A DNA stretch of 36,357 bases from Promethearchaeota archaeon (GTDB taxonomy: Archaea; Asgardarchaeota; Lokiarchaeia; Sigyniarchaeales; SOKP01), in NCBI GenBank assembly GCA_037386725.1, contig JARRLT010000048.1, forward strand, positions 1 through 36,357, read 5' to 3'. The position numbers were made by a program, and so were the translations under genes. Shown here in pieces: positions 1,443 through 30,442 of this stretch (its first letter is position 1; every line of letters begins with the position of its first letter). The notes under the pieces are model-generated. The model was not told the DNA's origin. It saw only the letters and a program-made list of their open reading frames with translations, and did not search any database.

Positions 1443-1581
1443 CTTATTTAATTTCTTTTAAGTTTAGAATTAATTAAAAAATCTTAAATTTCGTAACGTA
1501 TTAATTAATTAATCTTAATATAAAATAAAATCGTTATGCTCAATAAATTAAATAAAAATGATATAAAATAAAAATTAATAA

Positions 1582-2133: not shown

Positions 2134-2172
2134 ATTTATTATGTTTATTTAATATTAACCACACTACTTTAA

Positions 2173-9360: not shown

Positions 9361-9568
9361 AACTAAAAATTTTTTTAATTTGGATTGAATTTAAATTAAT
9401 TGAAATTCTAAAACAACTAATATTAAATATTGCTTTTATTATTATTATTTGTTTTCATTGATTCTTACTTTTTAGTTAAATGATTGAAAGAATCAACTTA
9501 AAATGAATTCTGTTTAAATTTTAAAATTATAAGATATACAATTTCTTTTTTGATAATTAGATTAAGAA

Positions 9569-9958
9569 TTACTTTTTAGGATATCGTTTTTTGATTTCCT
9601 TGGCGTAGTAGCGAAATACAGTTACAATTTTTCCCAAATCCTTTATATCCCTTGATGCTCCCATTATAATAAATCTTCCTGCTTGACTTATGATAATGAA
9701 TGCATTTTCACCTCTCAATACAACTTCAAGTAAATTCTTATATCCCAAGGTTGCAATGGCATCCTCTCCACTTTGCATAACCACTGCACTTAAACTAGAA
9801 AAGAGATCGGGGTCTAAATTATATGTAGGGATCGAAGAAAATGCCAATCTTAATCCCTCAGTCGTAATAAGGGCTAGAGCTTCTAACTCTGTATGTTCAG
9901 TAATATTTCCCAAAAATTTTGAAAGACTTTGGGCCTCTTTGGGGGTTAGTTCAGCCAT
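9569..9958 (-). CDS. Roadblock/LC7 (MglB-like) domain protein
   Basis: 129 aa. EALALITTEGLRLAFS...AFIIISQAGRFIIMGASRD fits the Roadblock/LC7 fold pattern. Confidence 0.8.
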   Translation of the reverse strand: MAELTPKEAQSLSKFLGNITEHTELEALALITTEGLRLAFSSIPTYNLDPDLFSSLSAVVMQSGEDAIATLGYKNLLEVVLRGENAFIIISQAGRFIIMGASRDIKDLGKIVTVFRYYAKEIKKRYPKK

Positions 9959-10125
9959 TTTTCTTGAAAATTATATTTTTTTATTATATTAAAGAAATTT
10001 TTGGTTAATAAAATATTAGATTTGTAATTTAAAAATGTATTTTGATAATTCTAACGTAAATCTATTGGTTAAAAACCATGCTAATTTGGAATTAATAGAA
10101 GGGTTAAAATAAGAATTTAGAACAA

Positions 10126-10971
10126 TTATTTTTGTTCTAATTGTCGTTTTATCTGATTTTTTAAAATATCCTTCTTACTGGTGCTTTTTGCGGGTTTTGG
10201 AACTTGATTAGTTCTTCTTAAAAATTCTATGGCAATTATGCTTCCGTCTTCTGATAAAATTCTAGGAGAGTAATCTTCAGCAAAAAACACACCCTCAGGA
10301 ATCGAACCAACCTTTTCAATTACTTTTTCTATTTGTTTTTTTCCTAAAAATGATTGGACTTTTTCTACGAGAGAATAAGCATGATTTCCAATAATAATTA
10401 ATTCCCTTTCATATCCATCGGGTATTTTAATTGCTTCTAGTTTTTCCATAATCGTTTTAAAATCGATTTTCTGACGCTCTTCAGTTAATGATGCCATTGA
10501 TTCTGTGCCCGTGTATAATGGTCCTAAATTATCTGTTTTTGACATACTTCCAGCAATGTTCATACCTTTAGCGGGCTCTGGAGCTGGAAAGTGCGATTTT
10601 TCACGCAAGGGGTGTCCAGCAGTTCTACTTTTTGGTTGTTCTTCATGTTTGATTTCTTTAGCGATCCCAGCCTCAGTCTTGCCACCCGCAACCTTGATAA
10701 AGTCCGGTTCCTCTTCTCCTTCATCTTGTGGAACCACTCCAAAATGCATTCCGACCATTCCGCGTATTTCTTGGCTCCTTTTTGCCCCAATAAACTTTGA
10801 TCTAACGGAACTCTTCTCTCCTTTCCAGAGATAAACTTTTCTTAACTCATCATCCACGATAACATAACACTCTTCTGTATCCAAAATATCTTTTATCGGT
10901 TTCTGAGTCTTGATTTCTTCTGTTGTACCATCTGGGAGTATTTTAAACACTTGTCGGCCTATTTCCAACAC
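10126..10971 (-). CDS. Gelsolin/villin-like domain protein (Asgard-type gelsolin candidate)
   Basis: The N-terminal 90 aa (FKILPDGTTEEI..EECYVIVDDELRKVYLWKGEKSSVRSKFIGAKRSQEIRGM) match the gelsolin-domain pattern (CYIL.. WiGk.Ss.dEk.aAa..a.el). It is adjacent to a Roadblock gene. Confidence 0.65.
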   Translation of the reverse strand: MLEIGRQVFKILPDGTTEEIKTQKPIKDILDTEECYVIVDDELRKVYLWKGEKSSVRSKFIGAKRSQEIRGMVGMHFGVVPQDEGEEEPDFIKVAGGKTEAGIAKEIKHEEQPKSRTAGHPLREKSHFPAPEPAKGMNIAGSMSKTDNLGPLYTGTESMASLTEERQKIDFKTIMEKLEAIKIPDGYERELIIIGNHAYSLVEKVQSFLGKKQIEKVIEKVGSIPEGVFFAEDYSPRILSEDGSIIAIEFLRRTNQVPKPAKSTSKKDILKNQIKRQLEQK

Positions 10972-11271
10972 CTTTTTATTATGTTCTCTTATATATTCTT
11001 AAATAATTTTCACTAATATAGTATTACTATATTACTAATATTAGTTTTACTATTTAATTATTCTTTTTAGAATCTTTATGAATTAATGTAATTAGCTTGA
11101 TAGATTTCTTTTAAAAATCATTTATAAGCTATAATGATCCTTTTTTTATTTTTAGAATCAATTTTAGACATATTCTATAATGAATAATAATATAGAGATT
11201 ATCTTTTTAAATTTTTTTAAAGTTACATATAAAGGTGAAATCCAATTCAAAAAGTTAAAGATTTTGAGATA
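10972..11271. promoter_or_regulatory. Divergent intergenic region between gelsolin-like (-) and aldehyde dehydrogenase (+); TATA-like ttacatataaagg at 11224-11236, about 40 nt upstream of ATG 11272
   Basis: 300-bp AT-rich spacer between divergently oriented genes. The TATA-like element is seen in the sequence; its function is not tested. Confidence 0.3.
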
Positions 11272-12753
11272 ATGAAAGAGGGAGATGAATATAAGTACTA
11301 TATAACGGGTGAATGGAGAAAATCTACTTCTAATAAAACCATCTCAATATTGAATCCATATAATAATGAGTTAGTAGGAAAAGTCCAAGCTTGCACAAAA
11401 GAAGAAATAGATGAAGTTTTTAAAAATGCTAAAGAAAGTATAGAATGTTGGGATATCACTCCACTCAGAGAAAGAGCTGAAGTCTTAAAAAAGGCAGCAG
11501 AATTGATGCGAGAATGGTCAGAGTATTTAGGGAATCTCCTAATGCAAGAAAATGGAAAACCCCTAAAGAGTGCTATTTCTGAGATTGAGAGAACAGCAAT
11601 TATTTTTGATGCAACCAGTGAAGAGAGTGATGTGTTTTTTGGTGAATCAATTCGAGGGGATATGCTAGAAGGATACGATAGAGATAAATTATCGATGACA
11701 TATCGAGTTCCTTTAGGAGTAATTTTATGTATTAGTCCATTTAATTATCCTTTCAATTTAGCGGGTTCAAAAATAGCTCCTGCATTGTTAGCGGGGAATT
11801 CTGTTGTGCTAAAGCCTCCAACTGAGGGATCAATTACGGGATTGCATTTTGGTGTTATAATGGAAAAGGCTGGATTACCATCAGGGGTATTCAATGTAGT
11901 TACCGGAAGGGGTTCTGAGATTGGAGATTACCTGGTGAGTCATCCGAATGTTGATATGATAAGCTTTACGGGTTCTTCTACAACAGGAAATCATATAGCA
12001 GATATTGCTGGAATGAAGCCTCTTTTACTAGAGTTAGGAGGAAAGGACGCTGCTATTGTTTTAGATGATGCAGATTTGGATTTAACTGTTGAAGCAATCA
12101 TTTCAGGCGCTTTTTCATATAATGGTCAGCGTTGTACCGCAGTAAAACGTGTTTTACCCATGCCCAGTATTGCAGATAAACTAATCGAAAAAGTAGTTGA
12201 AAAGGCTAAAAATTTAACAATAGGAAGTCCTGCAGAAAATAAGAAGATTGGACCAATAATTAGCAATAAACAATGTGATTACATAGAGGAATTGATCCAA
12301 GATGCTATTGATAAGGGAGCAACAGTGAGATGTGGAAATAAAAGAGAGAATAATATATTCTGGCCCACAGTTCTTGATAATGTTACTGAGGATATGCGAA
12401 TTGCCTGGGAAGAACAATTTGGACCGGTAATTCCTTTTATTCGAATAAAAAGTGCAGATGAGGCAATTCGAATCTCTAATGCATCCCAATATGGGTTACA
12501 AGGGATGATTTTTACAGAGAATATAGATTTAGCAATGAATATTGCTCAAGAACTGGAGGTTGGAACAGTGCAAATTAATGGAGCAAGTTCTCGTGGTCCA
12601 GATCATTTTCCATTTTTAGGAGCCAAATCAAGTGGTATGGGCACCCAAGGAATTAAATATACAATTGAGGCTATGAGTCGACCAAAAGTAATTGTAATGA
12701 ATCTCTCTGAAAGAGGAAAATTAGTTCATGATTGTGTTTATAAAGAAGAATAA
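11272..12753 (+). CDS. Aldehyde dehydrogenase family protein, GapN-like (NAD(P)-dependent non-phosphorylating glyceraldehyde-3-phosphate dehydrogenase candidate)
   Basis: 493 aa with ALDH hallmarks: FNYPFNLAGSKIAPALLAGNSVVLKPP, catalytic Cys in GQRCTAVKRVL, and ELGGKDAAIV (Glu-containing motif). Confidence 0.9.
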   Translation: MKEGDEYKYYITGEWRKSTSNKTISILNPYNNELVGKVQACTKEEIDEVFKNAKESIECWDITPLRERAEVLKKAAELMREWSEYLGNLLMQENGKPLKSAISEIERTAIIFDATSEESDVFFGESIRGDMLEGYDRDKLSMTYRVPLGVILCISPFNYPFNLAGSKIAPALLAGNSVVLKPPTEGSITGLHFGVIMEKAGLPSGVFNVVTGRGSEIGDYLVSHPNVDMISFTGSSTTGNHIADIAGMKPLLLELGGKDAAIVLDDADLDLTVEAIISGAFSYNGQRCTAVKRVLPMPSIADKLIEKVVEKAKNLTIGSPAENKKIGPIISNKQCDYIEELIQDAIDKGATVRCGNKRENNIFWPTVLDNVTEDMRIAWEEQFGPVIPFIRIKSADEAIRISNASQYGLQGMIFTENIDLAMNIAQELEVGTVQINGASSRGPDHFPFLGAKSSGMGTQGIKYTIEAMSRPKVIVMNLSERGKLVHDCVYKEE

Positions 12754-12866
12754 ACAACACTGCATTATATTTGAATTCTTTTTTTAATTTTAATCATATA
12801 ATCCTTATTCTTTATATTTAAGAAAAATAGTAGGGAGGATATTTTTTGTTAGAAAAGAAAAATAAT

Positions 12867-14380
12867 TTATTCAAAATACTTTATTATTTCTTTTAATTGT
12901 TCAATCATATCCATTGAAGTGAATTTAGTATTATAATTTTCCTTTGTGTATTCTCCTAATAAACCATTCAGAAAAGCGGCTGAGCAAGCAGCTTGGAATG
13001 GCGAATTTTCAGTAGCGAGAAAAGATGTACATAAACCCGCTAAAATATCTCCTGTCCCTCCAACAGCCATTTCAGGACATCCTGTCTTATTTATTTTAAT
13101 CTCTTTACCGTTACTTATATAATCATAAGGACCCTTTACTAATAATGTAATATTTAACTTTTTAGCTAATTGGTGTATCCACTCATAATCTTCAGTTCAC
13201 CTTCATGAGGTGTTAGAATACAAGATTGTCCCTTAATCAAATTAAGATGGTTCTTTATTAATTTTAAAGCATCTGCATCTAAAACAAATGATTTCTTATT
13301 TTTCTTTAGGTATTTTAGAATTTCAACTAATAACTCTTCAGTTTCTTTCTCTTTTCCTAATCCTGGACCAATAACTATTGCATTTGCCCAATCAATCAAA
13401 TAGCATATTTCTTCAAAAGCATCCATTTTTAACCAATTACCAGGTGAGGTACGAACAATCATGTTTGGAGAATATGATCTTACCACGTCCCCAATTACTT
13501 GAGGTGTATAAGTTATCACAAGATCTAACCCAAAATTTATCCCAGTTAAGGAACTATATGTTGGAGCTCCAGAATAATTTTTCGAACCTCCAATAACAAG
13601 CATTCTTCCAAATTGCCCTTTATGAAAATGAAATTGCCTGTGTTTGAGGGTAGGAATTAAATCTCCTCTTCCCACATATATTTGGGCCTCCTGAGGAATC
13701 CCTATAGGCTTTACTATGATTTCCTTAATATAATCACTATTGATGTCCATCCCTATCTTATTTCTATGGAATGTAATAACTAAATCCGCTTTTACTGCTC
13801 TATCGGGAACATTACCAGTATCCGGATCTAAACCAGAAGGAACATCAATAGATACAATTTTAATATTTTCTTGATGATCTTTTATTTCATTAATAAAATC
13901 AATAGCAGTAGCAATTGGTTCTCTTATTTTACCTTTTATTCCTGTACCCAGCATTCCATCTATTAAAACATCAAAATCCTCATTATCTAGAAGGATCCCT
14001 AAACTAACTACATCGGTAGAATCTTTTATTATTTCAAGTGTTATATTTTCCGTGAGATGTTTTGAGATAATATCCCAATTTAGTTTTGCTTCTTCTGTAT
14101 TGATTCTATTTGGTCTACCCATAAGAATCAATCTAACATTTACTCCCATTGAGGATAAATGTCGGGCAATAACAAATCCATCTCCACCATTATTTCCCAT
14201 TCCACAAAAGATTAATACTTTAGAATTGGAATCTAAACCGTATTTTTCGATAACTTCCATTGCAAAAGAATATCCCGCACATTCCATAAGATGAGCTTTG
14301 GGAATTCCTAACCATTCACTATTGTTATCTAATATTCCAACTTCTTTAGAGGAAATTTTATCCTTATATAATCTTTCCAT
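12867..14380 (-). CDS. nnr: Bifunctional NAD(P)H-hydrate repair enzyme Nnr (N-terminal YjeF-N epimerase plus C-terminal ADP-dependent dehydratase), split by a frameshift near 13166-13185
   Basis: Track ORF 13166..14380 carries the epimerase domain and the start of the dehydratase (SCILTPHEGELKIMSGYTN, then stop). A second frame continues ..LAKKLNITLLVKGPYDYISNGKEIKINKTGCPEMAVGGTGDILAGL.. (track ORF 12867..13070), which is the conserved GGxGD end of the dehydratase. A one-base indel would restore the frame. Confidence 0.85.
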
Positions 14381-16856: not shown

Positions 16857-17548
16857 TTAAGTGGTAATGAATGATTTTATTTTAGAATTTACCAATTTGG
16901 GTTCATCATGCATTACCCAATGTGATCCATTCTCAACTTTAAAAATTTCTAGATCCTCTACATACTCCTCTAAACCCTCAAGAACCACTGGCATTACAAA
17001 CATATCTTTCATTCCAAATATAACTAGGGTTGGCACCTTAATGATTCCAGTAAATTCAGAAAAATCTTGATTAGCTCTATAATAATTAACTCCTCCTAAA
17101 ATTGCTCCTGATTGAGACCATGCACTGATATATTTTTTTATATTTTCGGATGAGGTGCATTGAGAATTATTAACTTATTAAGCAATTCGGGGTGTTGTTC
17201 CGCAAAAATCCATGCGATCATCCCACCCCAGTCATGCCCTATTAAAGTAACTTTTTCAAGTTGGAGTGTTTGACAAATACTTCTTACATCTTCAATTAAA
17301 TATTGGATTTTATAACTTTCTTGATTTTCTGGCTTATCGGACAGATTATAACCTCTTAAATCTGGAACTATTAACTTGAACTCCTCTTTCAAGCCTAATA
17401 TTATGTCTTTCCAACCATACCAAAAATCGGGAAATCCATGAAGTAAAATTACCGGCTTCCCAGATCCAAAGATTAGCGTATGAAGTTTCACTTCATTGGA
17501 ATCTATATACTTTTCTTCTGCTTCTTGTTTAAGATCCATATTTATCAA
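16857..17548 (-). CDS. Alpha/beta-fold hydrolase (epoxide-hydrolase / haloalkane-dehalogenase-like) with a frameshift at the T7 homopolymer 17143-17149
   Basis: Track ORF 17138..17548 gives LLHGFPDFWYGW...VPDLRGYNLSDKP...LIGHDWGG (nucleophile elbow) ..NAPHPKI, then stop. An adjacent frame continues ..SAWSQSGAILGGVNYYRANQDF..VPTLVIFGMKDMFV..ENGSHWVMHDEP.. to TAA at 16857-16859. This is the expected cap and His-containing C-terminus. The plus-strand track ORF 16861..17070 is antisense to this region. Confidence 0.8.
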
Positions 17549-17721: not shown

Positions 17722-17825
17722 TGGAGCCCTTGGGGGGGTATGATCCCCCGACCTTTGCCTTTTAGGGTAGTAGGGGAAACCCACTTCGTACCAAGGCAAC
17801 GCTCTACCGACTGAGCTACAAGGGC
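17722..17825 (-). tRNA. tRNA with anticodon GGU (Thr) carrying a 28-nt intron at the canonical 37/38 position
   Basis: Reverse complement: GCCCTTG TA GCTC AGTCGGTAG AGC G TTGCC TTGGTA [CGAAGTGGGTTTCCCCTACTACCCTAAA] A GGCAA AGGTC GGGGG ATCATAC CCCCC CAAGGGC T CCA. The acceptor has a perfect 7 bp stem, and the D-arm GCTC/GAGC is canonical. The anticodon stem TTGCC/GGCAA closes only after intron removal. It is the only strongly GC-rich intergenic block in this part of the window. The T-loop is atypical (ATCATAC). Confidence 0.65.
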
Positions 17826-17994: not shown

Positions 17995-18672
17995 CTAAAT
18001 ACCAAAAATTTGAGTAAAAATAATTCCTTGTGTGATGAGAAATAGAGCAATGCCGTAAGTGAGCATCACATAAAATCGATCGTGAGGGATATGTTTATCA
18101 AATTTATCAATAGCAATTATTCCATCTGAAATAATAAATAAGAGAGACCCAATCCATGGAAATAGAAATGATAAGGAGATAAAATTAAATGAATCCAATC
18201 TTAAGATTGCAAAGAGTCCCATAGTAAAAATTGCTGCTACATAAACGTATGTCGGAATCTTAAGATCCCCCATTTTCCCTTGAATTCTGAATAGTATAAA
18301 ACTCATAATAAAAATTTCAAAAAGGATTAGAAAGAATCCCCAAAAAGGAAAAGATAAAATATTTGCAATGGATAATGCGAAACTAATTATGAAGAAGATC
18401 TGACAAATTAGAAACGAACCAAGACCATATATAAACCATTTCCCTTCTTTCTCCACCATTAGAAAAAAATCTCCAAACCAGGCAAAAATAAGTCCAACAA
18501 TGAAGAACCAGTTTAAAATACCTAAGTTTAGATTAAATACATAATACAAGATCAAAAGTGGCATTAGAAACGGTTTTGTGATAAGTCGAATTTTAACATT
18601 CTTAAACCATTCTCCGCCTATATGAATAATAAGTAATAGAAAATATAGAACAAGAAATATAATTGATATCAT
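17995..18672 (-). CDS. YhhN-family (TMEM86/lysoplasmalogenase-like) polytopic membrane protein
   Basis: 225 aa, about 7 hydrophobic segments. The conserved blocks KPFLMPLLILYY, GLIFAWFGDFFLM and GLGSFLICQIFF, and the C-terminus YGIALFLITQGIIF, parallel E. coli YhhN (KPLTLLLL / GLCASLLGDALTL / GAFFLSHLLY / AGHFLIVRSL). Confidence 0.6.
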   Translation of the reverse strand: MISIIFLVLYFLLLIIHIGGEWFKNVKIRLITKPFLMPLLILYYVFNLNLGILNWFFIVGLIFAWFGDFFLMVEKEGKWFIYGLGSFLICQIFFIISFALSIANILSFPFWGFFLILFEIFIMSFILFRIQGKMGDLKIPTYVYVAAIFTMGLFAILRLDSFNFISLSFLFPWIGSLLFIISDGIIAIDKFDKHIPHDRFYVMLTYGIALFLITQGIIFTQIFGI

Positions 18673-18874: not shown

Positions 18875-19425
18875 TTATAACAAGAAAATTCCCAAAATGT
18901 CTCCTTGAACTATAAGAAATTGGGCTATAATATATGTAATTAATACAAATATACCCGTATGTGGAATTTTTTGGTCAAACATATCGATTAGGATGATTCC
19001 ATAATACACTTGGAATATCAAGGACCCTACCCAAACAAGATAAAATGATAACCCAAGAGATCCTGGTAATCTAAGTATTGAAAATAAATTCATAAAAATA
19101 TCTTGTTTTAGTGATTGTATTTCAAAAAGGCTATAATATAACTAAACTGACCAACTATCAAAAATATAACTCCATTTAACCAATGTTCTTCTTCATGATA
19201 AAAAATAAAAAAGAAGTTTCCAATAAACCCACATACTAGTCCAATAACTATAAAATAGTTAATATTTCCAAATGGAACACTAAAAATATCATACAATATA
19301 AGAGTAATCAAAATAGAAGGGAGACTATAATATTGAAGCTTTTTTTCTCTTCTAAATACAAAAAATGTATGTAATACGCTAACCGAGATAAAAAGTATTA
19401 AAAATATTAGGGCTATGATGTTCAT
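18875..19425 (-). CDS. Tandem paralogue of the YhhN-family membrane protein, split into two ORFs (19108-19425 and 18875-19093) by a frameshift
   Basis: The N-terminal ORF (MNIIALIFLILFIS..IVIGLVCGFIGNFFFIF) and the C-terminal ORF (..IDMFDQKIPHTGIFVLITYIIAQFLIVQG) align to the N- and C-terminal halves of 17995..18672 respectively. The frames differ, and there is a 14-nt gap between the ORFs. Confidence 0.5.
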
Positions 19426-20598: not shown

Positions 20599-22473
20599 TT
20601 ATTTAGCAATAATTTCTTTTAAATTATGTTTCATATCCTTTCCACCGTTACCTAAAAAGTTCTTGATCTTATCAGAATATTCGGGTAAAATCGTTAGAAA
20701 TGGGATTATAGCTTTAGCGAGAGCTGAAAAGGATTCATTCCCATCCCCCATTATGAACATTTTCTCTGGATTAATACTTTTAAAAATTTCCGGTAGAATA
20801 TTAGTCAATTGGACAGCTAAAAATCTTTGATCTGCGTTACTCATCGCATCAACCTGTTTCTGAAAACCTTCTGCTTGAGCCATCATTTGTTGTTTAATAC
20901 TTGCAGCCTCACCCTCTGCTTGCGCAATTAATCTCTTTTTAATCTGTGCTGCATCGGCTTCCGCTTCAATAACTTTCTTTTGACGATCTCCATCTGCTTC
21001 AATCTTTTTACGTTCTCTTTCTTGTTCAGCGATTGCGATTTCTTTTTCTTTTCTACGTAATTCAATATCTCGTTGAACTAATTGCTCTTGAGTACCAACT
21101 TCATTCTGTACTTCCAATTCTCTCATTCTTGATTCCCGTTCCGCATCAGCCTTAGCAATACGAGCTGTTCTATACACTGTTGCTTGTTTAGTTGCTTCCA
21201 TATTCTTCTTTAATTCGGGTTCAAGTATGTTCACTTCTCTTATTTCTATAGATTCAATTATAAGACCCCAATCTGATGTTAATTCATGTAACTCTTTACT
21301 TACATGTTCAATAATCTCACGTCGCTCTCTAATAATTTTTTCAAGAGGCATATTAGCACATGTAGTTCTAATTATAGCTTCTGCAGCATTTTTCAAGATT
21401 TTTTCTACATAATGATCATCTTGGGGATTCCATGAGATGGCACTAAAAGCGTTTTCAGGGTTAATTACTTTCCAAATTAACATTCCTACTATAGAAATAT
21501 TTTGGTATTCCATGGATACTACCTGTTCATGAGCCTCTAGAATTGTTTGTATACTTGTAGTAGGAATTACAATATATTCATCAATCAGTGGCAACAACCA
21601 GATTCTTCCTCCTAATCCAGCAGATTTTACTCTACCATTCCTTAAATGGATCACAAACTGATTCGTTTTAAACTTTCTGTATCGTGTGGCTAAAAATATG
21701 AGAAATAAAAATGCGATTATCACGACAGTAACTATAACACCTACAATCACTCCATTAATCTGTTGAAATAACATTCTTTTTCTTCCTCCTTTTTTATAAT
21801 TAATTTGACCTTTTTCAAAAACCTCCCCCTCCTTATAAGGCTTCACATGCAATTTCTCGTATTTCAATGGATTTCTTGAAGCTATCTTAATAACCCCACC
21901 ATATTCATCGACTTTTAAAACAACTTCCCCTTCTACCCCTAACAAATTTTGAGTTGCAGCTATTGTATAATGCATGGAAGTAGCAATTTTTTCCCAGAGT
22001 ACTGAAATAACCTTAGTGGCTAAAATACTTGCAATAGGAGCAATAATAAACAATAAAAATTTGAAAATACCTATGATTAGATAATATGATGCCATCCCAG
22101 TAATTCCAAAAACTAATAATGCTGAGGAAAGTAAAAGTAAGAATGGTGCGGGAGTACTACCTTCCTGTATCATTGTATCTGTTTGAAATTCATTAGTATA
22201 ATCTACATGATCCACATGATCTGGATGGTCCACATGATCAACGTGATCTATGTGATCAGGATGATCTAAATAAATAGCATGGTCAATATGGTCTATATGA
22301 TCAGGATGGTCCACATGATCAACGTGATCAGGATGATCTAAATAATCAGCATGGTCTATATGATCAGGATGGTCAGGGTGATCAATATGATCGATGTGAT
22401 CTGTGCCTTGATCATGATCAGTAGAAGTTTCAGTTAAAATAAACGAAATTATGGCTAAAATTAATCCTCCAAT
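20599..22473 (-). CDS. NfeD-like (2 TM plus OB-fold) / SPFH-flotillin fusion protein with an N-terminal tandem His/Asp (DHxDH) repeat region. The track start is GTG at 22312-22314, but the frame is open up to 22473 and encodes a hydrophobic N-terminal segment
   Basis: Order of elements N to C: (i) open frame IGGLILAIISFILTETS... with no canonical start; (ii) DHPDHIDHIDHA(I/D)YLDHPDH(I/V)DHVDHV, two copies plus a partial; (iii) 2 TM helices; (iv) beta-barrel GVEGEVVLKVDEYGGVIKIASRNPLKYEKLHVKPYKEGEVFEKGQ (NfeD-C-like); (v) TM helix; (vi) SPFH/band-7 domain (VIHLRNGRVKSAGLGGRIWLLPLIDEY...); (vii) EA/EQ-rich coiled coil typical of flotillins (AEGEAASIKQQMMAQAEGF..). Confidence 0.8.
   Translation of the reverse strand: MGGLILAIISFILTETSTDHDQGTDHIDHIDHPDHPDHIDHADYLDHPDHVDHVDHPDHIDHIDHAIYLDHPDHIDHVDHVDHPDHVDHVDYTNEFQTDTMIQEGSTPAPFLLLLSSALLVFGITGMASYYLIIGIFKFLLFIIAPIASILATKVISVLWEKIATSMHYTIAATQNLLGVEGEVVLKVDEYGGVIKIASRNPLKYEKLHVKPYKEGEVFEKGQINYKKGGRKRMLFQQINGVIVGVIVTVVIIAFLFLIFLATRYRKFKTNQFVIHLRNGRVKSAGLGGRIWLLPLIDEYIVIPTTSIQTILEAHEQVVSMEYQNISIVGMLIWKVINPENAFSAISWNPQDDHYVEKILKNAAEAIIRTTCANMPLEKIIRERREIIEHVSKELHELTSDWGLIIESIEIREVNILEPELKKNMEATKQATVYRTARIAKADAERESRMRELEVQNEVGTQEQLVQRDIELRRKEKEIAIAEQERERKKIEADGDRQKKVIEAEADAAQIKKRLIAQAEGEAASIKQQMMAQAEGFQKQVDAMSNADQRFLAVQLTNILPEIFKSINPEKMFIMGDGNESFSALAKAIIPFLTILPEYSDKIKNFLGNGGKDMKHNLKEIIAK
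22200..22420 (-). repeat. Tandem 84-87-nt direct repeat (two full units plus a partial) encoding the DHxDH His/Asp-rich motif inside the flotillin-fusion gene
   Basis: Units gaccatcctgatcatatagaccat(att/gct)gac/gat..tatttagatcatcctgatcac(ata/gtt)gatca(c/t)gttgatcatgtg recur with few substitutions. gatcat/gaccat hexamers dominate 22200-22420. Confidence 0.8.
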
Positions 22474-24342: not shown

Positions 24343-24566
24343 ATCTTTAAAATAACTTATCCTTCTTTTTTTACCAATTTGAAGTTGATAAAGTTTTTAT
24401 CATCACAAAGAATATCTAATTTTAGGCTCATTTCGAAATTTTTAAGTTTAAAGAAAAATTTTGAAAGCTATTAGATTATTATTTGAGATTAAAATAAAGT
24501 AGAGATTTTACATACTATATCCTGGTAAGGATCGTTTCGTGTAATAATCCCAACCCTGAGTTTGAT

Positions 24567-26978
24567 ATGAGCGAAGAAAAACTAAAAATACATAAAAGAA
24601 AGATAGAAGCAATCTCTGAAATGGTTAGAAATGCGTACGACAACGCGAAGCCGGGGGAATATTTCTCTCTAAAAAAGGCGAGTGTTTCCCATATGGCCCC
24701 ACAGCCGGATAACCCAAAATATAGTGATAAGCCGATAGATGTGAGGTCACTTACAGAAATTATTGAGATAAATACGGATGCAAGGACGTGTATTGCAGAA
24801 GCAGGGGTTACTTTTGATAAACTTGCAAGAGAAACCTTAAAGTATGGGCTCGTACCGCAATGCGTTTCCGAGCTCAAGGGAATCACGATAGGTGGGGTAG
24901 TAGCAGGATGTTCAGTTGAATCCATGTCTTTCAAGTATGGGGGATTTTTCGATTCTTGTGAAGAAATAGAGATTGTGACAGGAACAGGTGACATAATGTT
25001 ATGCTCGAAAAGTGATAACCATAAAATATTCGAGATGCTGCACGGGAGTTTCGGTACAATTGCAATCATCACGCTCCTAAAGTTCAAGCTTGTTCCAGCA
25101 AAGAAGTGCGTCCGTATCGATTACATCCATTACGATACTTTTAGTGAATATATGGAAGCTATCAAGCAACACTACGAAAAGCAGGATATTGAAATGATGG
25201 ACGGGCTTATCTTCTCCGAAAATAAGAACGTACTCTGCGTTGCCAGCTTTGTTGATGAGGAGGAAGCTCCTTACAAGAGTAAGTATTTCTACGACATTTA
25301 TTATAAAAGTGCAATGAAAAGAAAGCAAGACTTCCTCTCCACCATAGATTATTTTTTCAGGTATGATGCAGATTGCCATTGGTCGATACGAAATGTTGCT
25401 GGAGGAATTTTTGAGAATAAAGTAGTCCGGTGGTTAGTAGGACCCTATATACTTGGATCGACAAATATTCTTAAGACCAGCGAACGATTACCATTTTTAA
25501 CTAAGAAGGGGGGCGAACCGGACGTGATTGTTGATGTCTTCATACCAATCACTAACGCGGAAGAATTTTTCAATTGGTACCTGGAGTTATTTGATTACTT
25601 CCCAGTTTGGATCGTCCCTTACCGCATGCAAAAAAACAAACTAGATGGGTACAAATTCTACCCATGGATCAATCAAGATATGATCGCTCCCATCGAGGAT
25701 GAGCTATTCATAGATTTTGCCATCTACGGGTTCGAGCAAAAAAGAAAGGGATTTAACTTCTATAAAGCGCTAGAAGAAAAGGTTCATGAACTTAGGGGAA
25801 TGAAAACCCTAATAACTCATAATTACTACGAGGAAGACTTGTTCTGGAAGGTATTTAACAAGAAATTATATGATAAAGTTAAAGAACAAACGGATCCCAA
25901 GAACCTATTTCGAAACTTGTATGAAAAGACGAATTACAAGAAAAAGACTAAAAAGACGAAAAAACTGAAGGTAGGTATACCACGTTCCCTGTATTTCTAC
26001 AAGTATTTTCCATTATGGGAAGGATTCCTTACAAATCTCGGTTGCGAAGTTATTGTGAGCCCAAAAACAAATAAAGAAATTCTTACCAACGGATCTAATC
26101 AATCTGCAACCGATTTATGCATTCCAATCAAGATTCATTATGGTCATGTAAATTATTTATCAAGAAATCACCCCGATCTAGATTTTATATTAGTTCCAAG
26201 ACTCATTAGTAATAGTAAAGATCATTATTATTGTCCGAAATTCCTGATCCTTCCAGATGTTACTCAACACTCAGCAGTTTCTAATATTCCCGTTATTGAA
26301 TGGACTATTAATGCCAGGGAATATTCAATGATGAAATCAGCAATAGATTTTGGAAAAAAATTAGATAGATCAAAAGAAGAATCAAAACTTGCGTATGAAA
26401 ATGGATATAAAAAACTTGAAGAATTCCATGAGTTGATCAAGGATGGAATTTTTGTTCCTGATGCCCTTTACAAAATGTATCCTTTTGAAGAATATCCAAA
26501 TTATAAATTCAAGAAAAGATTTCGACCTAAACTTAACAAAGATTATAAAAATTATCCACTTTCATTAATGGTTATTGGTCATCCATACAATACTTATGAG
26601 CCAATTATTAATCATGGATTAATGGATATTCTCAAATCTAATTTTGTTGATGTTATAACTGTTGAAAATGCTCCAAAGGAAATCTTTTCAAGAAGAGTTG
26701 AAATTGATGATAATCTTTGCAATTTCTGGGATAATGAAGATGAATTGATGCAATTATCTGATTATGTTATCCATAATGAAGAGATTGATGGGGGTATTTT
26801 CTTGATTTCTTTTGCATGTGGTCCTGATTCTTTAATTCAAGAATTAATAATGCAAGATTTTGACATGAAAGATAAACCTTTTATTGATCTCACATTAGAT
26901 GAACACAGTGGAGAATCTCAAATAACCACAAGAGTAGAATCTTTTATCGAAATGATAAGGAGGAAGAAATACAAATGA
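24567..26978 (+). CDS. Fusion protein: DHCR24-like (delta24-sterol-reductase family) FAD-dependent oxidoreductase (aa 1-460) plus a DUF2229-type domain, the usual partner of BadF/BcrAD/HgdC-type activase ATPases (aa 470-803)
   Basis: Blocks shared with DHCR24 are LKGITIGGVVAGCSVESMSFKYGGFFDSCEEIEIVTGTGDIMLCSKSDNHKIFEMLHGSFGTIAIITLLKFKLVPAKKCVRI, ..YFYDIYYKS.., DYFFRYDADCHWSIRNV, VWIVPYRM and LFIDFAIYGFEQKRKGFNFYKALEEKVHELRGMKTLITHNYYEEDLFWKVFNKKLYDKVKEQTDPKNLFRNLYEK. The corresponding DHCR24 blocks are [110 protein letters not shown] and LYIDIGAYGE...[29 protein letters not shown]. A K-rich linker (KKKTKKTKK) follows, then LKVGIPRSLYFYKYFPLWEGFLTNLGCEVIVSPKTNKEIL..ATDLCIPIKIHYGHVNYL..LDFILVPRLIS, which is the DUF2229 signature. 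The stop overlaps the next start (ATGA 26975-26978). Confidence 0.85.
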   Translation: MSEEKLKIHKRKIEAISEMVRNAYDNAKPGEYFSLKKASVSHMAPQPDNPKYSDKPIDVRSLTEIIEINTDARTCIAEAGVTFDKLARETLKYGLVPQCVSELKGITIGGVVAGCSVESMSFKYGGFFDSCEEIEIVTGTGDIMLCSKSDNHKIFEMLHGSFGTIAIITLLKFKLVPAKKCVRIDYIHYDTFSEYMEAIKQHYEKQDIEMMDGLIFSENKNVLCVASFVDEEEAPYKSKYFYDIYYKSAMKRKQDFLSTIDYFFRYDADCHWSIRNVAGGIFENKVVRWLVGPYILGSTNILKTSERLPFLTKKGGEPDVIVDVFIPITNAEEFFNWYLELFDYFPVWIVPYRMQKNKLDGYKFYPWINQDMIAPIEDELFIDFAIYGFEQKRKGFNFYKALEEKVHELRGMKTLITHNYYEEDLFWKVFNKKLYDKVKEQTDPKNLFRNLYEKTNYKKKTKKTKKLKVGIPRSLYFYKYFPLWEGFLTNLGCEVIVSPKTNKEILTNGSNQSATDLCIPIKIHYGHVNYLSRNHPDLDFILVPRLISNSKDHYYCPKFLILPDVTQHSAVSNIPVIEWTINAREYSMMKSAIDFGKKLDRSKEESKLAYENGYKKLEEFHELIKDGIFVPDALYKMYPFEEYPNYKFKKRFRPKLNKDYKNYPLSLMVIGHPYNTYEPIINHGLMDILKSNFVDVITVENAPKEIFSRRVEIDDNLCNFWDNEDELMQLSDYVIHNEEIDGGIFLISFACGPDSLIQELIMQDFDMKDKPFIDLTLDEHSGESQITTRVESFIEMIRRKKYK

Positions 26979-28006
26979 TTAAACCAGAATTTATAAAAAA
27001 TATTCTTTCAGAGAATGTGAATGACAGATTATATTTAGGAATCGATGTCGGAAGTGTCTCCACGAAATGTGCAATAATTAATGAGAGAAATGAATTATTG
27101 TATGCTACCTGGACCAGAAATGGTGGTTCTCCCATTGTTTCTACACAAGAAAATCTAAAATTCATGGAAGAAGTTCTTCCCGAAAACATCGAAAAAAGCA
27201 TTTGTGGTGTTGGGACAACAGGTTCTGCTAGGTATTTAATAAAAGCTCTTATCGGAGCAGATATAGCAAAACCTGAAATAATTGCTCATGCAATTGGAGC
27301 TTCAACTTATACTCCTGACGTAAGAACAATTCTTGAAATCGGGGGTCAGGACAGCAAAGTTATATTGATGAAAAATGGCATCGTAACAGATTTTAACATG
27401 AACAGTGTTTGTGCTGCCGGAACTGGTTCTTTTCTAGATCACCAAGCAGTTCGGATCAAGGTTCCAATTGAAGAATTTGGGGATTATGCTCTTCGGGCAG
27501 AAGAAGAGGTTTCAATCGCAGGACGATGCACAGTTTTTGCCGAATCTGATATGATCAGTAAACAACAAGAAGGATATTCTAAAGAAGCAATTATCAAAGG
27601 ATTGTGTAAAGCTCTTGTTAGAAACTACTTGAATAATGTTTGTAAGGGTAAAAAACTGTATCCTCCTTTCGTATTCCAGGGAGGAGTTGCAGCAAATTCC
27701 GGAATAAAAAATGCTTTTGAAGAAGAACTGGGGCATGAAGTCATTATTCATGAAAACCATTACGTGATGGGAGCATTTGGTTCAGCTATTTTGGCAAAGG
27801 AATATGTAAATGGACAGATGTCTTCTTTTCATGGCCTAAAAGTTAGTGAATTGAACTTGGCTTCAGGTTCATTTGTTTGTCCTGATTGTGCTAATAGATG
27901 TACAGTTAAATACCTTGTCAGGGAAGAAGATAAGAATAGAACAACTGGAAGAGAAAAGGATGATGCGATATTTGCACGATGGAATAGTAGGTGCGGTAAA
28001 TGGTAA
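26975..28006 (+). CDS. BadF/BadG/BcrA/BcrD/HgdC-family ATPase (CoA-substrate-specific enzyme activase type; acetate/sugar-kinase fold with an inter-subunit [4Fe-4S] cluster)
   Basis: LGIDVGSVSTKCAIINE (phosphate-1), EIGGQDSKVILM, VCAAGTGSFLD, AGRCTVFAESDM and FQGGVAANSGI..VMGAFGSAILA are the family blocks, including the conserved cluster-ligating Cys positions. The start overlaps the upstream stop and the stop overlaps the next start. Confidence 0.9.
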   Translation: MIKPEFIKNILSENVNDRLYLGIDVGSVSTKCAIINERNELLYATWTRNGGSPIVSTQENLKFMEEVLPENIEKSICGVGTTGSARYLIKALIGADIAKPEIIAHAIGASTYTPDVRTILEIGGQDSKVILMKNGIVTDFNMNSVCAAGTGSFLDHQAVRIKVPIEEFGDYALRAEEEVSIAGRCTVFAESDMISKQQEGYSKEAIIKGLCKALVRNYLNNVCKGKKLYPPFVFQGGVAANSGIKNAFEEELGHEVIIHENHYVMGAFGSAILAKEYVNGQMSSFHGLKVSELNLASGSFVCPDCANRCTVKYLVREEDKNRTTGREKDDAIFARWNSRCGKW

Positions 28007-29334
28007 ATGTTAGAGTTTCATTTTCACGAATGGGTTGGAGTTATATTTTTTTCAAAGGTTTATTCCATGAAATTCCTGGCATTGAAATTGTTGAACCCCC
28101 TCTAGTAAATACTGAAATCGTTAGTGAAGGAGTCAAATATTCTCCTGAATTCGTTTGTTTTCCATTTAAAGTTATTCTTGGTGAAATGATAAACCTGTAT
28201 CGTAATTATGATGTTAAAGACTTTATGATGATTGCTGACCACGGCCCTTGTCGAGCAGGAATGTATGGTGTTGTCCAGAAAAGAATTATGAAAAACATGG
28301 GATTCAAGGATGTTAGAATGTTTTATCTGCGTCAAGATGATTTCCGAAATCTTGAATGGCTAAGGGTATTTCCTAATTTAGAAAAAAGAACAGGAAGAAA
28401 AATTGATGACTATAAAATTTTAAGAAACACACTCTTGTTCTTGGTCAAAGCATACTATGTTGAAAGAATAAGCCATATTGAAGGACTTGTTAGATGTCGA
28501 GAAAAAAACAAATCAATGACTACCAAAGTAGTTCATACTTTGATGAATTTACTTGATAACGAAAATAACTTGATGAAATTATCTAATTTTGATAGAATAA
28601 TAGATGAAAATTTTCGCAAGATTCCAATTGACAAGGATATGGAACCTTTGAGGGTTTGTTATACTGGGGAAATCCAAGTCATGTTGGAGAAATGGGTTAA
28701 TTATGATCTGATGGGGGAATTAGGCGTCATGGGTATCGAGGTTCACAAACAGTATGATGTCTTTGATTGGGTTATGTACAAACTTGATGCCAGCAAACGA
28801 AGAAGACGGCTTGAACGTAAAGCAAGAAACTATATTCCAATGGATATTGGTGGAGAAGCAGTATGGAATATGGGAAGTTATCTTGAGTCTCAAGAAAAAG
28901 GTTTTGATGGTTTTGTTCATATATTCCCATTTACTTGCATGCCTGAAATATCCCTTATGGGAATGCTAGAAGCTGAGAAAAACATGGACAAGTTTTACAT
29001 GCCCCACATTCATTTTAGTCTTGATGGAAGCTCTGGATTTGAAGGACTTAGAACAAGAATTGAAGCATTTTATGATTTAATGGTTGGCAACAAGGAAACT
29101 AATCCCTTATTTAGAGATGTCAAGTATACAGTCCCAGATGAAATAAAAAATATATATTTTAAACCGAAATCCGATTTTGAATATTTCATGTCTGGTATTG
29201 AAAAACCAATGTCAATGGTTTTAACAATGCTGAATCCATCAAAGAAATTAGATATAGGATTCACCATTAAGAATGGATTCAAGTTTTTTTCAAGAAATTC
29301 GTTTTTTGATATCGGATCTCTTTTTAACCTTTGA
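28000..29334 (+). CDS. DUF2229-family protein (second activase-associated component; HgdB/BcrC-like partner role inferred)
   Basis: EGVKYSPEFVCFPFKVILGEMINL..DFMMIADHGPCRAGMYGVVQKRIM matches the DUF2229 pattern (CyP.K...G........d..fmp...GpCRfG.Y). It is translationally coupled to the ATPase (ATGGTAAATG overlap at 27997-28006). Confidence 0.7.
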   Translation: MVNVRVSFSRMGWSYIFFKGLFHEIPGIEIVEPPLVNTEIVSEGVKYSPEFVCFPFKVILGEMINLYRNYDVKDFMMIADHGPCRAGMYGVVQKRIMKNMGFKDVRMFYLRQDDFRNLEWLRVFPNLEKRTGRKIDDYKILRNTLLFLVKAYYVERISHIEGLVRCREKNKSMTTKVVHTLMNLLDNENNLMKLSNFDRIIDENFRKIPIDKDMEPLRVCYTGEIQVMLEKWVNYDLMGELGVMGIEVHKQYDVFDWVMYKLDASKRRRRLERKARNYIPMDIGGEAVWNMGSYLESQEKGFDGFVHIFPFTCMPEISLMGMLEAEKNMDKFYMPHIHFSLDGSSGFEGLRTRIEAFYDLMVGNKETNPLFRDVKYTVPDEIKNIYFKPKSDFEYFMSGIEKPMSMVLTMLNPSKKLDIGFTIKNGFKFFSRNSFFDIGSLFNL

Positions 29335-29530
29335 GAAGCTATTTTGTTATGAAAGTTTCTTTTCCAAATATGGGCAATTCGTGGCCGGCGAAAATTTTTG
29401 ATTTGATTATTACTTAGATCTGTAAGATCACAACTTTAAAGCAAAGCGAATCTTTAAAATGATCTTAGATTCTTTTTACAAAATTATAAAATGGATTTAT
29501 TTTTAATTATTTAATATAATATAGTTAAAA

Positions 29531-30442
29531 TTGACTTTTAAGGAAAAAAGGAGAATAATGCCAAAAGCGAATATAAATCATATAGAAATTGAATATGAAA
29601 CAGTTGGAAATCCAGATTCAAAACCAATATTATTAATAGCGGGTTTGGGTAGCCAACTATTAGCTTGGTCGGATGATATATGTAATGAACTTGTCGATAA
29701 TGGCTTTTTTGTTATCAAGTTTGATAATCGAGATGTTGGTTTATCAACAAAATTTAACAATGCTGGGATACCAGATATGATGGAAATTAGTGCTGCTTTT
29801 ACTCGTGGAGAGATACCAGATGTTCCATATACATTAGAAGATATGGCTAATGATGTTGTTGGTTTATTAAATGCGTTAAATATTAATAGAGCGCATCTCT
29901 GTGGTGCTTCTATGGGTGGTATGATCGCTCAAATTGTAGCTTATAAATATCCTTCTAGAGTTTTATCATTGAATGTAATTATGAGTACAACAGGAAATCC
30001 TTTATTACCACAAGCAAATCCAGAGGTTATGACTCAATTTTTCGCACCGATTCCTTCTGAACGAAAAGCATATATAGAAGAAATGGTAAAACGCGATAAA
30101 TTAATATATGGTGATTTTAATTATGATGAAAACAAAGCAAGAGAATACAGGACAAACGAGTATGACAGAAGTTACTATCCTGAAGGTGTAGTTCGTCAAA
30201 TGGCAGCAATGGCAGTACCAGGTAACATTCAGCCCAAAATCTCAGTAATTAAAGCACCAACCCTTGTGATCCATGGAAGGAAAGATCCTTTTAATTCTGT
30301 TGAAGCTGGTAAAGAAATTGCATCAACGATACCTGGAGCGGAACTATTACTTTTGGATGGAATGGGACATAGTATTCCTAATGAAATCTTAAAACAAATA
30401 GTAGACGCAATAAGTAACAACAGTAAGAAAATCAAATCATAA
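29531..30442 (+). CDS. Alpha/beta-fold hydrolase
   Basis: The oxyanion region ILLIAGLGSQLLAWSD and the nucleophile elbow HLCGASMGGMIA (GxSxG) are present, with the His-containing C-terminal block LLLLDGMGHSIP. Confidence 0.85.
   Translation: MTFKEKRRIMPKANINHIEIEYETVGNPDSKPILLIAGLGSQLLAWSDDICNELVDNGFFVIKFDNRDVGLSTKFNNAGIPDMMEISAAFTRGEIPDVPYTLEDMANDVVGLLNALNINRAHLCGASMGGMIAQIVAYKYPSRVLSLNVIMSTTGNPLLPQANPEVMTQFFAPIPSERKAYIEEMVKRDKLIYGDFNYDENKAREYRTNEYDRSYYPEGVVRQMAAMAVPGNIQPKISVIKAPTLVIHGRKDPFNSVEAGKEIASTIPGAELLLLDGMGHSIPNEILKQIVDAISNNSKKIKS

Follow-up and report, generated by a model that had tools for sequence, protein, structure and literature searches.

The 36,357-nt contig JARRLT010000048.1 of a Promethearchaeota archaeon (Lokiarchaeia), referred to in its entirety as the window, carries at positions 24567-29334 a cassette of three genes (A, B and C) that joins a flavin domain resembling the sterol reductase DHCR24 to the predicted catalytic machinery of an ATP-dependent iron–sulfur (Fe-S) enzyme. 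Sequence profiles and structure models make it very probable that the cassette encodes an enzyme of the benzoyl-CoA reductase/2-hydroxyacyl-CoA dehydratase (BCR/HAD) type, together with its activator and an accessory flavin domain. More specifically, we tentatively read the locus as a split, three-polypeptide 'archerase' of the PlsA/PlsR/Ger branch with a DHCR24-like flavin domain fused to its alpha-like subunit, and give this reading a little less than an even chance. Systems of the PlsA/PlsR/Ger type are already known, and Ger homologues have been noted in Lokiarchaeota (PMC13159169); the fusion of the flavin domain to the alpha-like subunit appears, by sequence comparison, to be new.

Architecture of the cassette

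As listed among the open reading frames (ORFs) of the window, A, B and C encode 803, 343 and 444 residues, respectively (Table 1). Read directly from the sequence, A and B overlap in ATGA (26975-26978), and B and C in the 7-nt ATGGTAA (28000-28006). In Pfam searches, A matched the flavin adenine dinucleotide (FAD) profile FAD_binding_4 at residues 57-146 (E 2e-14; the match covers profile positions 48-138 only, leaving the canonical N-terminal part of the profile unmatched), DUF2229 at residues 468-700 (E 5e-45) and, under the gathering score, the C-terminal part of HGD-D at residues 718-797 (E 3.5e-6). C gave sub-threshold matches only (DUF2229, E 1e-5; HGD-D, E 2e-4), and a hydrophobic-segment check of A, B and C revealed no transmembrane segment in any of them. 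An earlier annotation made from the DNA letters alone (the sequence-only reading) had proposed three translationally coupled genes encoding a DHCR24-like FAD::DUF2229 protein, a BadF-type ATPase and a second DUF2229 protein; the coordinates, the domain combination and a significant flavin-binding match within residues 1-460 of A were all recovered. For comparison among loci (numbered with the prefix L), we call the C-terminal type of A DUFa or Red1, the C type DUFb or Red2, the activase ACT and acyltransferases AT, and mark paralogues with a prime.

The fusion in A recurs across the Lokiarchaeia. When one genome per GTDB species was scanned with the DUF2229 half, 21 loci came up at 86-93% identity, and the FAD domain lay in the same ORF in 20 of the 20 with upstream sequence present; L034 is uninformative, as its contig begins within the DUF2229 half. 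Four further fused copies came from metagenome contigs, and the fused copies L001 and L002 sit on independent contigs with different flanks. The junction was in frame in 16 of 16 full-length orthologues from independent assemblies. Among these, in-frame EKT(NYK) repeats that add up to 11 residues make the linker vary in length, with indels always in multiples of three, and column identity is 0.90-0.98 along the whole of A and 0.93-0.96 in each 40-residue bin of the FAD half. Because the same in-frame ORF is present in 16 independently assembled orthologues, the fusion is genuine and no assembly artefact. The sequence-only reading had asked whether the fusion and the three-gene order recur in other Asgard or Lokiarchaeial genomes, which they do in at least 20 species-representative loci, and had made its case dependent on the absence of a stop or frameshift near 25950-26000, which comparison of orthologues, rather than of reads, excludes. 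The cassette's rather high non-synonymous/synonymous ratio could be taken to argue for decaying pseudogenes, or for misassembly or a frameshift near 25.95 kb, but this artefact reading is effectively refuted by the in-frame junctions, the multiple-of-three indels and the three ORFs, which are unbroken in all complete copies even at nucleotide divergence of up to 16%.

Outside this group, none of the best 150 of 5336 representative hits to the FAD domain matched both halves of A, so the fusion is, by these comparisons, specific to this Lokiarchaeial group. Two kinds of longer hit were considered as candidate fusions and rejected: those of ~900 residues are two tandem DHCR24-like FAD domains (P0370, P0379, P0383, P0386 and P0398), and those of 710-770 residues are DUFa-DUFb fusions. 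In the literature searched we found no described system with a flavin fusion of this kind, in line with the statement of the sequence-only reading that the domain combination was not known from characterised systems. The Asgard host that it had proposed also fits, with actin, two Roadblock/LC7 proteins and a presumably intron-containing tRNA encoded in the window and the closest relatives of the cassette found in metagenome-assembled genomes (MAGs) of Promethearchaeota/Promethearchaeia. Cassette contigs L022, L023, L027, L035 and L045 carry the bin labels Nitrosopumilaceae, Nanopelagicaceae, Ignavibacteriales, Woesearchaeota and Bathyarchaeota, and the cassettes of the first three are ~90% identical to the window copy; this binning is likely to reflect contamination.

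The C-terminal half of A and the whole of C resemble the catalytic subunits of BCR/HAD-type enzymes. AlphaFold2 models were built separately for the two (predicted local distance difference test scores of 91 for the A domain and 86 for C), the mixed alignment A3 of fused, FAD-only and DUF-only sequences being visibly misaligned and set aside. Foldseek searches of the PDB with these models returned exclusively DCCP, HadBC and BzdNO/MbdON (top 14 and top 19 hits, respectively), with probability 1.0, E 3e-8 to 5e-4 and template modelling scores of 0.42-0.57; by sequence, C had no PDB match. The two families are paralogous to each other (hhalign probability 99.2%, E 4e-19, 336 columns). Each carries three (near-)invariant cysteines, namely Cys518, Cys556 and Cys751 in A and Cys53, Cys84 and Cys313 in C, and Cys59, Cys97 and Cys292 are invariant in the DUF2229-half alignments A1 and A4; these triads could hold one or more Fe-S clusters at the subunit interface. 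Given the BCR/HAD/DCCP fold, the cysteine triads and the paralogy, we assign the C-terminal half of A and C, on sequence and model evidence, as the predicted alpha/beta-like catalytic pair of an archerase system and not as accessories or docking partners of the activase, the role in which the sequence-only reading had cast DUF2229. Standalone homologues of the DUF2229 half, of ~350 residues, are widespread in Asgard archaea.

B is more readily placed. It exceeded the curated thresholds of BcrAD_BadFG (PF01869; E 5e-46, 158 bits against a gathering threshold of 31.5) and TIGR00241 (190 bits against a cut-off of 125), and matched 9gai_D, 1hux and 4eht in the PDB by sequence (E 1e-36 to 1e-39; 137 bits to MbdQ and HgdC). 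Both cluster cysteines, Cys146 (MNSVCAAGTG) and Cys185 (GRCTVFAES), align with those of 1HUX and 9GAI_D. Family profile and cluster cysteines thus identify B as a predicted HgdC-type [4Fe-4S] activator, upholding its earlier assignment as a BadF/BcrAD/HgdC-type ATPase. At its C terminus, B has an additional CxxCxxxC...C motif (Cys302, 305, 309 and 340), which sequence comparison showed to be missing from HgdC and HadI and which may form an extra Fe-S or Zn site. The extension carrying it (B residues 302-343, window 27878-28003) is shared with the ACT' and B-B-DUF2229 proteins that L023 and L025 encode.

The N-terminal flavin domain of A belongs to a large prokaryotic family. The 5336 representative hits are mostly standalone proteins of ~445 residues from bacteria and archaea, and the domain is 42-62% identical to hundreds of such homologues from Asgard archaea and many bacteria. 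In the family alignment A5, the fused copy agrees at every one of the 72 invariant columns. Residues 7-454 of A aligned with residues 65-509 of a hand-entered human DHCR24 sequence, itself vouched for solely by the strength of this alignment (22% identity, 132 bits, E 9e-38). Among solved structures, cytokinin dehydrogenases were the best relatives (69 bits, E 5e-18, FAD-binding domain only), and in a profile search GlcD and D-2-hydroxyacid dehydrogenases were weakly similar. The ether-lipid flavoenzyme AGPS, which belongs to the same superfamily, was rejected as closest relative, its matches (E 5e-6 and 3e-3) falling far below those of DHCR24 and the cytokinin dehydrogenases.

The likeness to DHCR24/DWF1 is full-length, spanning the FAD-binding and cap domains; what differs is the low identity and the setting. 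We found neither an N-terminal membrane anchor nor any hydrophobic segment in the domain, no sterol genes among the genes of the window and no close similarity, and hence none of the marks of a DHCR24/DWF1 orthologue; the Lokiarchaeial domain groups instead with the ~445-residue prokaryotic family. The sequence-only reading was therefore right about a full-length DHCR24-family match, but its 'multiple long identity blocks' overstate an alignment at 22% identity, and its view of a eukaryote-type enzyme does not hold, the domain bearing no eukaryotic signature as judged from these comparisons. A protein of Anaeramoeba flamelloides annotated as '24-dehydrocholesterol reductase' (P0018, 563 residues) is 56% identical to the Lokiarchaeial domain and only 22% identical to the hand-entered human DHCR24 sequence; it belongs to the prokaryotic clade, which suggests that its annotation is misleading and that a prokaryote-to-eukaryote transfer took place.

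Genomic context and recent spread

Unfused relatives of the cassette link it to acyltransferases. L012 and L014 retain the gene order DUFa-activase-DUFb. In L014, the closest unfused cassette with identifiable neighbours (54/65/58% identity for DUFa/activase/DUFb), a gene for a PF01553 acyltransferase overlaps DUFa at its start. L012, the closest unfused relative overall (72/82/77%), has at the acyltransferase/FAD-domain position of related cassettes a 523-residue protein (657-2228, plus strand) that has two predicted transmembrane helices, hits nothing in Pfam and does not resemble the FAD domain. Further removed is a paralogous cassette (about 42/40/52%) that occurs throughout Lokiarchaeia and in MAGs labelled Thor-, Hermod-, Hod-, Odinarchaeota and Harpocratesius. 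Paralogous cassettes are preceded in nearly every case by an acyltransferase, either a tandem double PlsC/AGPAT protein of ~560 residues (TIGR00530, 153 bits, over cut-off) or two separate genes; L015 and L053 have, in addition, an acyl-CoA-synthetase-like gene farther upstream. The 80 genome loci tallied include the patterns AT-DUFa (24 loci), AT-DUFa-DUFb-ACT (7) and AT-AT-DUFa-DUFb-ACT (5), together with only ~4 unfused DUFa' loci that have no AT upstream. Roughly half the fused cassettes sit within an operon AT-DUFa'-[FAD::DUFa-ACT-DUFb]-DUFb'-ACT' (for example L023), and a third paralogue, a B-B-DUF2229 protein of ~980 residues with PlsA architecture, is found in Lokiarchaeial clusters.

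Two conclusions follow from these comparisons. Since paralogous cassettes devoid of a flavin domain are widespread, also in the same genomes as fused cassettes, the flavin domain is an addition to the system rather than what the activase serves. The context further points to an acyl-glycerolipid as the putative substrate; the sterol or isoprenoid substrate of the sequence-only reading is unsupported, with PlsC/AGPAT genes upstream of the paralogous and the closest unfused cassettes.

Expanded sets of PlsA/R/Ger-like genes are gathered in one cluster in L018, L023, L025, L037, L038, L041, L053, L057, L059, L083 and many other loci. Such Asgard sets comprise either the tandem double-AGPAT gene or two AGPAT genes, followed by DUFa'-DUFb'-activase', often together with the ~980-residue B-B-DUF2229 protein. 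Among ~76 non-Lokiarchaeial metagenome loci with standalone FAD homologues, one adjacency of the PlsA/Ger type was seen, on the bacterial-type contig L131. There, a standalone DHCR24-like gene (8001-9299, plus strand) converges, with a 16-nt overlap, on a gene (9284-13723, minus strand) for a 1479-residue protein of B-B-DUF2229-... (PlsA/Ger) architecture, an adjacency that is circumstantial. This uncharacterised protein is 33% identical to the cassette in the activase and 21-29% in the DUF2229 parts.

The cassette has spread recently. We compared window positions 24385-29410 with L001, L017-L038, L160 and L173-L175, and nucleotide similarity between the window and about 30 loci was restricted to ~24385/24531-29340/29410. 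Across 19 copies in metagenome contigs and in MAGs of diverged Lokiarchaeia, pairwise identity of the 4.8-kb cassette was 84-100% (median 93%), as against 71-78% in the adjoining syntenic flanks of the same genome pairs; at four-fold third positions, identity was 86-96% in A, B and C versus 30-50% in AT, DUFa', DUFb' and ACT'. Cassette identity of ~93% beside synonymously saturated neighbours, in differing insertion contexts, indicates that the cassette diverged far more recently than its host genomes, presumably by horizontal transfer or a recombination sweep.

Its ends bear traces of the former surroundings. The DUFb' start remnant that follows C in the window (Table 1) is also present in L020, L174, L175, L021, L160, L034 and L001, and in L021 it runs on into a longer piece of a DUFb' gene. 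Other copies, forming a second class, carry a remnant of the DUFa' 3' end upstream of the cassette. Remnants of the DUFa' 3' end and the DUFb' 5' end indicate that the cassette arose nested between these two genes and moved with pieces of both. Irrespective of function, the locus is a clear case of a metabolic operon recently spread among diverged Lokiarchaeial genomes.

Candidate reaction and its alternatives

PlsA/PlsR is the anaerobic plasmalogen synthase of Clostridium perfringens reportedly described by Jackson et al. in 2021. It turns an ester into a vinyl ether, and Ger yields a saturated alkyl ether from an ester; both consist of PF01869, PF09989 and PF06050 (PMC13159169, PMC9702350), have BCR/HAD-family ancestry and are described with the order Act1-Act2-Red1-Red2 (PMC13159169, PMC9702350, PMC12838417). 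PlsA and Ger were the only characterised DUF2229 proteins in the literature searched, and the 'unknown chemistry' that the sequence-only reading had ascribed to DUF2229 is thereby superseded. The characterised references are Q8XL48 and Q835P9 (PlsA), Q8XL47 (PlsR), and Tmari_0479 and SHJ90043 (Ger). The Lokiarchaeial cassette holds the same domain set, with PF01869 on B, PF09989 and an HGD-D C terminus on A, and weak matches together with the fold on C.

Like PlsA/PlsR of C. perfringens and the single-chain PlsA of Enterococcus and Lactococcus, the cassette combines activation with two 'Red' modules in the same Pfam blocks, with conserved cysteines (ligands of [4Fe-4S] in PlsA/PlsR) and BCR/HAD descent. 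It differs in being distributed over three polypeptides in the order Red1-Act-Red2, in its archaeal host, in being known from genes alone and in the N-terminal DHCR24-like flavin domain of Red1, which is found in no described PlsA/PlsR. It also has one activase gene rather than two fused activase domains, so that two activation domains would require a homodimer of B. Ger ('modified PlsA'; Thermotoga maritima and Desulfatibacillum alkenivorans; Sahonero-Canavesi et al. 2022) shares the domain families, and its conversion of the sn-1 ester to a saturated alkyl ether yields the end product that we propose for the Lokiarchaeial system; unlike the latter, it is one chain of ~1400 residues (BBDHDDH) and has no flavin domain. 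With HgdAB/HadBC and HgdC/HadI, BzdNOPQ/MbdONPQ and DCCP/DCCP-R, the cassette shares the catalytic fold, the activator cysteines and the logic of ATP-driven electron injection. Its catalytic subunits are, however, only 10-15% identical to theirs, its HGD-D matches stay below the gathering score, its context is one of phospholipid acyltransferases and it gives no sign of CoA-ester binding.

In the mechanism that we envisage, B, probably as a [4Fe-4S]-bridged homodimer, would take an electron from a low-potential donor and, on ATP hydrolysis, inject it into the Fe-S centre or centres of a heterodimer of the C-terminal half of A with C. This pair would reduce and dehydrate a glycerolipid at its acyl-ester carbonyl, giving a 1-alk-1'-enyl (vinyl) ether, the reaction that has been proposed for PlsA/PlsR. 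The tethered flavin domain would then reduce the vinyl-ether C=C bond to give a saturated alkyl ether, through protonation to an oxocarbenium ion and subsequent hydride transfer from reduced FAD, by analogy with DHCR24 and its trisubstituted olefin. Vinyl ethers are readily protonated to oxocarbenium ions and would thus suit the protonation/hydride chemistry attributed to DHCR24-type reductases. Judging from domain set and gene context, an acyl-glycerolipid undergoing ester-to-ether conversion is on balance the probable substrate. That the flavin domain acts specifically as a vinyl-ether reductase, an idea drawn by analogy with DHCR24, we consider doubtful. The literature leaves room for such an activity: a plasmalogen intermediate has been proposed for Ger (PMC8788747), PlsA and Ger cannot be distinguished by sequence, and a 'yet-unknown enzyme' converting the vinyl ether to the alkyl ether has been postulated (PMC13274423).

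Several observations weigh against the proposed PlsA/PlsR/Ger-type function. The copy in the window is solitary, with no acyltransferase within 36 kb. Standalone FAD homologues showed no recurring neighbour family beyond near-identical contigs (5 contexts, ~76 metagenome loci). The ether lipids reported from cultured Asgard archaea are isoprenoid, the Asgard members of the branch are known from genes alone, and their kinship with PlsA/PlsR/Ger is drawn from the domain set rather than from direct comparison with the characterised sequences. As the Ger of Thermotoga yields saturated ethers with no flavin domain, a separate reductase is not required, and as most VAO/PCMH enzymes are dehydrogenases or oxidases, the direction of the flavin reaction is uncertain. 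Finally, differences at first and second codon positions within the cassette (3-4%) are relatively high beside those at third positions (~10%), suggesting that constraint on it may be rather relaxed.

Among other explanations, the one that survives best, though it is improbable, is a soluble small-molecule substrate, with the Fe-S pair acting like a 2-hydroxyacyl-CoA dehydratase or DCCP and the flavin domain reducing or oxidising the product, for example by enoyl reduction or 2-hydroxyacid oxidation. The structural neighbours of the pair are indeed CoA-ester dehydratases/reductases and DCCP, the FAD domain is weakly similar to GlcD and D-2-hydroxyacid dehydrogenases, and the cassette proteins are free of transmembrane segments and, in the window, have no acyltransferase nearby. 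The strong DUF2229 match (E 5e-45), to a family whose characterised members in the literature searched are PlsA and Ger, argues otherwise, as does the tight and repeated coupling of paralogues and closest relatives to AGPAT genes; nor does solubility discriminate, since PlsA and Ger are likewise soluble-type proteins acting on membrane lipids (PMC13159169).

We think it still less probable that the flavin domain is an electron-entry module, which would pass electrons from NAD(P)H or another donor to the activator or the Fe-S pair in place of ferredoxin or flavodoxin and have no lipid substrate of its own. Archerase systems do require a dedicated reductant, and the extra CxxCxxxC...C motif of B could relay electrons. 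Yet the domain keeps, and conserves, the whole C-terminal cap/substrate domain of its family, paralogous cassettes in the same genomes manage with no flavin module, and the potentials of free flavin and NADPH are ill-suited to reducing an HgdC-type cluster. In favour of such a module, the FAD of DHCR24-family enzymes accepts hydride from NADPH (PMC9602106).

The model of the sequence-only reading, in which the activase and DUF2229 proteins feed an ATP-boosted electron to the FAD for reduction of an isoprenoid- or sterol-type C=C bond, ranks lower again. The architecture that it described stands; the eukaryotic signature does not, a sterol/isoprenoid substrate is less likely than an acyl-glycerolipid one, and the activase cassette is better read as a PlsA/PlsR/Ger-type catalytic system than as an accessory to the flavoenzyme. 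The covalent tie of flavin domain to DUF2229 and the translational coupling to the activase speak for it, and DHCR24 reduces the double bond of a terminal isoprene unit while archaeal lipids are isoprenoid. It is at odds with the complete BCR/HAD/DCCP catalytic fold and cysteine triads of the DUF2229 proteins, with the many flavin-free cassettes of the same type, with a DHCR24-type chemistry that uses NADPH and no ATP-driven electron, and with a context of acyltransferases rather than isoprenoid or sterol genes around a domain at 22% identity to the sterol enzyme.

Least probable of those that take the fusion as real, and quite improbable, is the reverse direction, in which the Fe-S pair makes the saturated ether and the flavin domain dehydrogenates 1-O-alkyl to 1-O-alk-1'-enyl chains, as an oxygen-independent counterpart of PEDS1. 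The cytokinin dehydrogenases, as best solved-structure relatives (E 5e-18), would fit a dehydrogenase, and the window's YhhN-family gene hints at the presence of vinyl-ether lipids. Against this, the only characterised full-length relative, DHCR24, is a reductase, the cassette encodes no oxidant partner, and PlsA/PlsR already yield the vinyl ether directly (PMC9702350).

Returning to the proposed PlsA/PlsR/Ger-type function, the fusion of a C=C-reductase-type flavin domain to Red1 offers a concrete, testable candidate for the postulated enzyme that saturates vinyl ethers on the anaerobic route from ester lipids to alkyl-ether lipids. In its fullest form, the flavin domain would be the missing oxygen-independent vinyl-ether reductase and would complete, together with the AGPATs and paralogous cassettes, a route from acyl-glycerolipids to saturated fatty-alkyl ethers in Lokiarchaeia, which we regard as unlikely. 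If true, a bacterial-type ether-lipid pathway would exist in archaeal relatives of eukaryotes and would be spreading horizontally as a 4.8-kb module. The question bears on the 'lipid divide', that is, on whether Asgard archaea, whose genomes hold expanded AGPAT-linked families, can make bacterial-type ether lipids derived from fatty acids.

Feature map and neighbouring genes

Table 1. Features of the cassette and its boundaries in window coordinates
Feature	Position	Strand	Basis
AT-rich conserved leader/promoter region, upstream end of cassette 'class I'	24385..24566	+	Nucleotide similarity to L160, L031, L001, L033 and L027 begins here
Gene A, whole ORF	24567..26978	+	ORF list of the window
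A, N-terminal DHCR24-like FAD (VAO/PCMH-type) oxidoreductase domain, residues 1-454	24567..25928	+	Pfam, DHCR24 alignment
A, Lys-rich interdomain linker, residues 455-467, NYKKKTKKTKKLK	25929..25967	+	In frame in 16 orthologues
A, C-terminal DUF2229/HGD-D-like domain, residues 468-803, alpha-like 'Red1'	25968..26978	+	Pfam, AlphaFold2, Foldseek
B, predicted HgdC/BcrAD-type ATP-dependent activator	26975..28006	+	ORF list; BcrAD_BadFG, TIGR00241, PDB sequence matches
C, predicted DUF2229-like/HGD-D-like beta-like catalytic subunit, 'Red2', PlsR-like	28000..29334	+	ORF list; fold, hhalign
38-nt fossilised 5' start of a DUFb'-type gene, MKVSFPNMGNSW..., marking the downstream end of the mobile cassette	29349..29386	+	Exact match; frame ends after 19 codons

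Upstream of A, an alignment of the upstream ends showed that the last ~40 nt before the gene are common to all copies (ATCGTTTCGTG.AATAATCCCAACCCTG.GTTTGA.ATG). A sigma-70 promoter and terminator scan, of a kind unsuited to an archaeon, returned sites no commoner than expected by chance. Downstream of C, an alpha/beta hydrolase gene (29531-30442) was considered as a further member of the system; it is absent from every other cassette locus and is therefore not counted.

A gene for a YhhN-family membrane protein (17995-18672, minus strand; PF07947, E 8e-37) lies 5.9 kb upstream of the cassette, next to a truncated second YhhN-like ORF (19108-19425, minus strand). The characterised YhhN members TMEM86A/B and MtbYhhN of M. 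tuberculosis are lysoplasmalogenases that hydrolyse vinyl ethers (PMC3137066, PMC9052158). At the other loci examined, the YhhN gene is unlinked to the cassette. Both this gene and the L131 adjacency fit a vinyl-ether theme circumstantially, neither recurring in other loci. Near the YhhN gene are an aldehyde dehydrogenase gene (11272-12753, plus strand; E 5e-154) and a truncated alpha/beta hydrolase gene (17138-17548, minus strand), which could form with it a set for the salvage of lysolipids and fatty aldehydes, or could stand there by coincidence.

Two further features of the window concern neither the cassette nor its presumed chemistry. A tRNA of 101 nt (17725-17825, minus strand) scored 55 bits with Rfam, was not called by ARAGORN and is presumably an intron-containing archaeal tRNA. 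An SPFH/Band-7 protein (20599-22314, minus strand) begins with an unusual N-terminal His/Asp repeat (DHPDHIDHIDH...VDHVDHPDHVDH), possibly a metal-binding tail.

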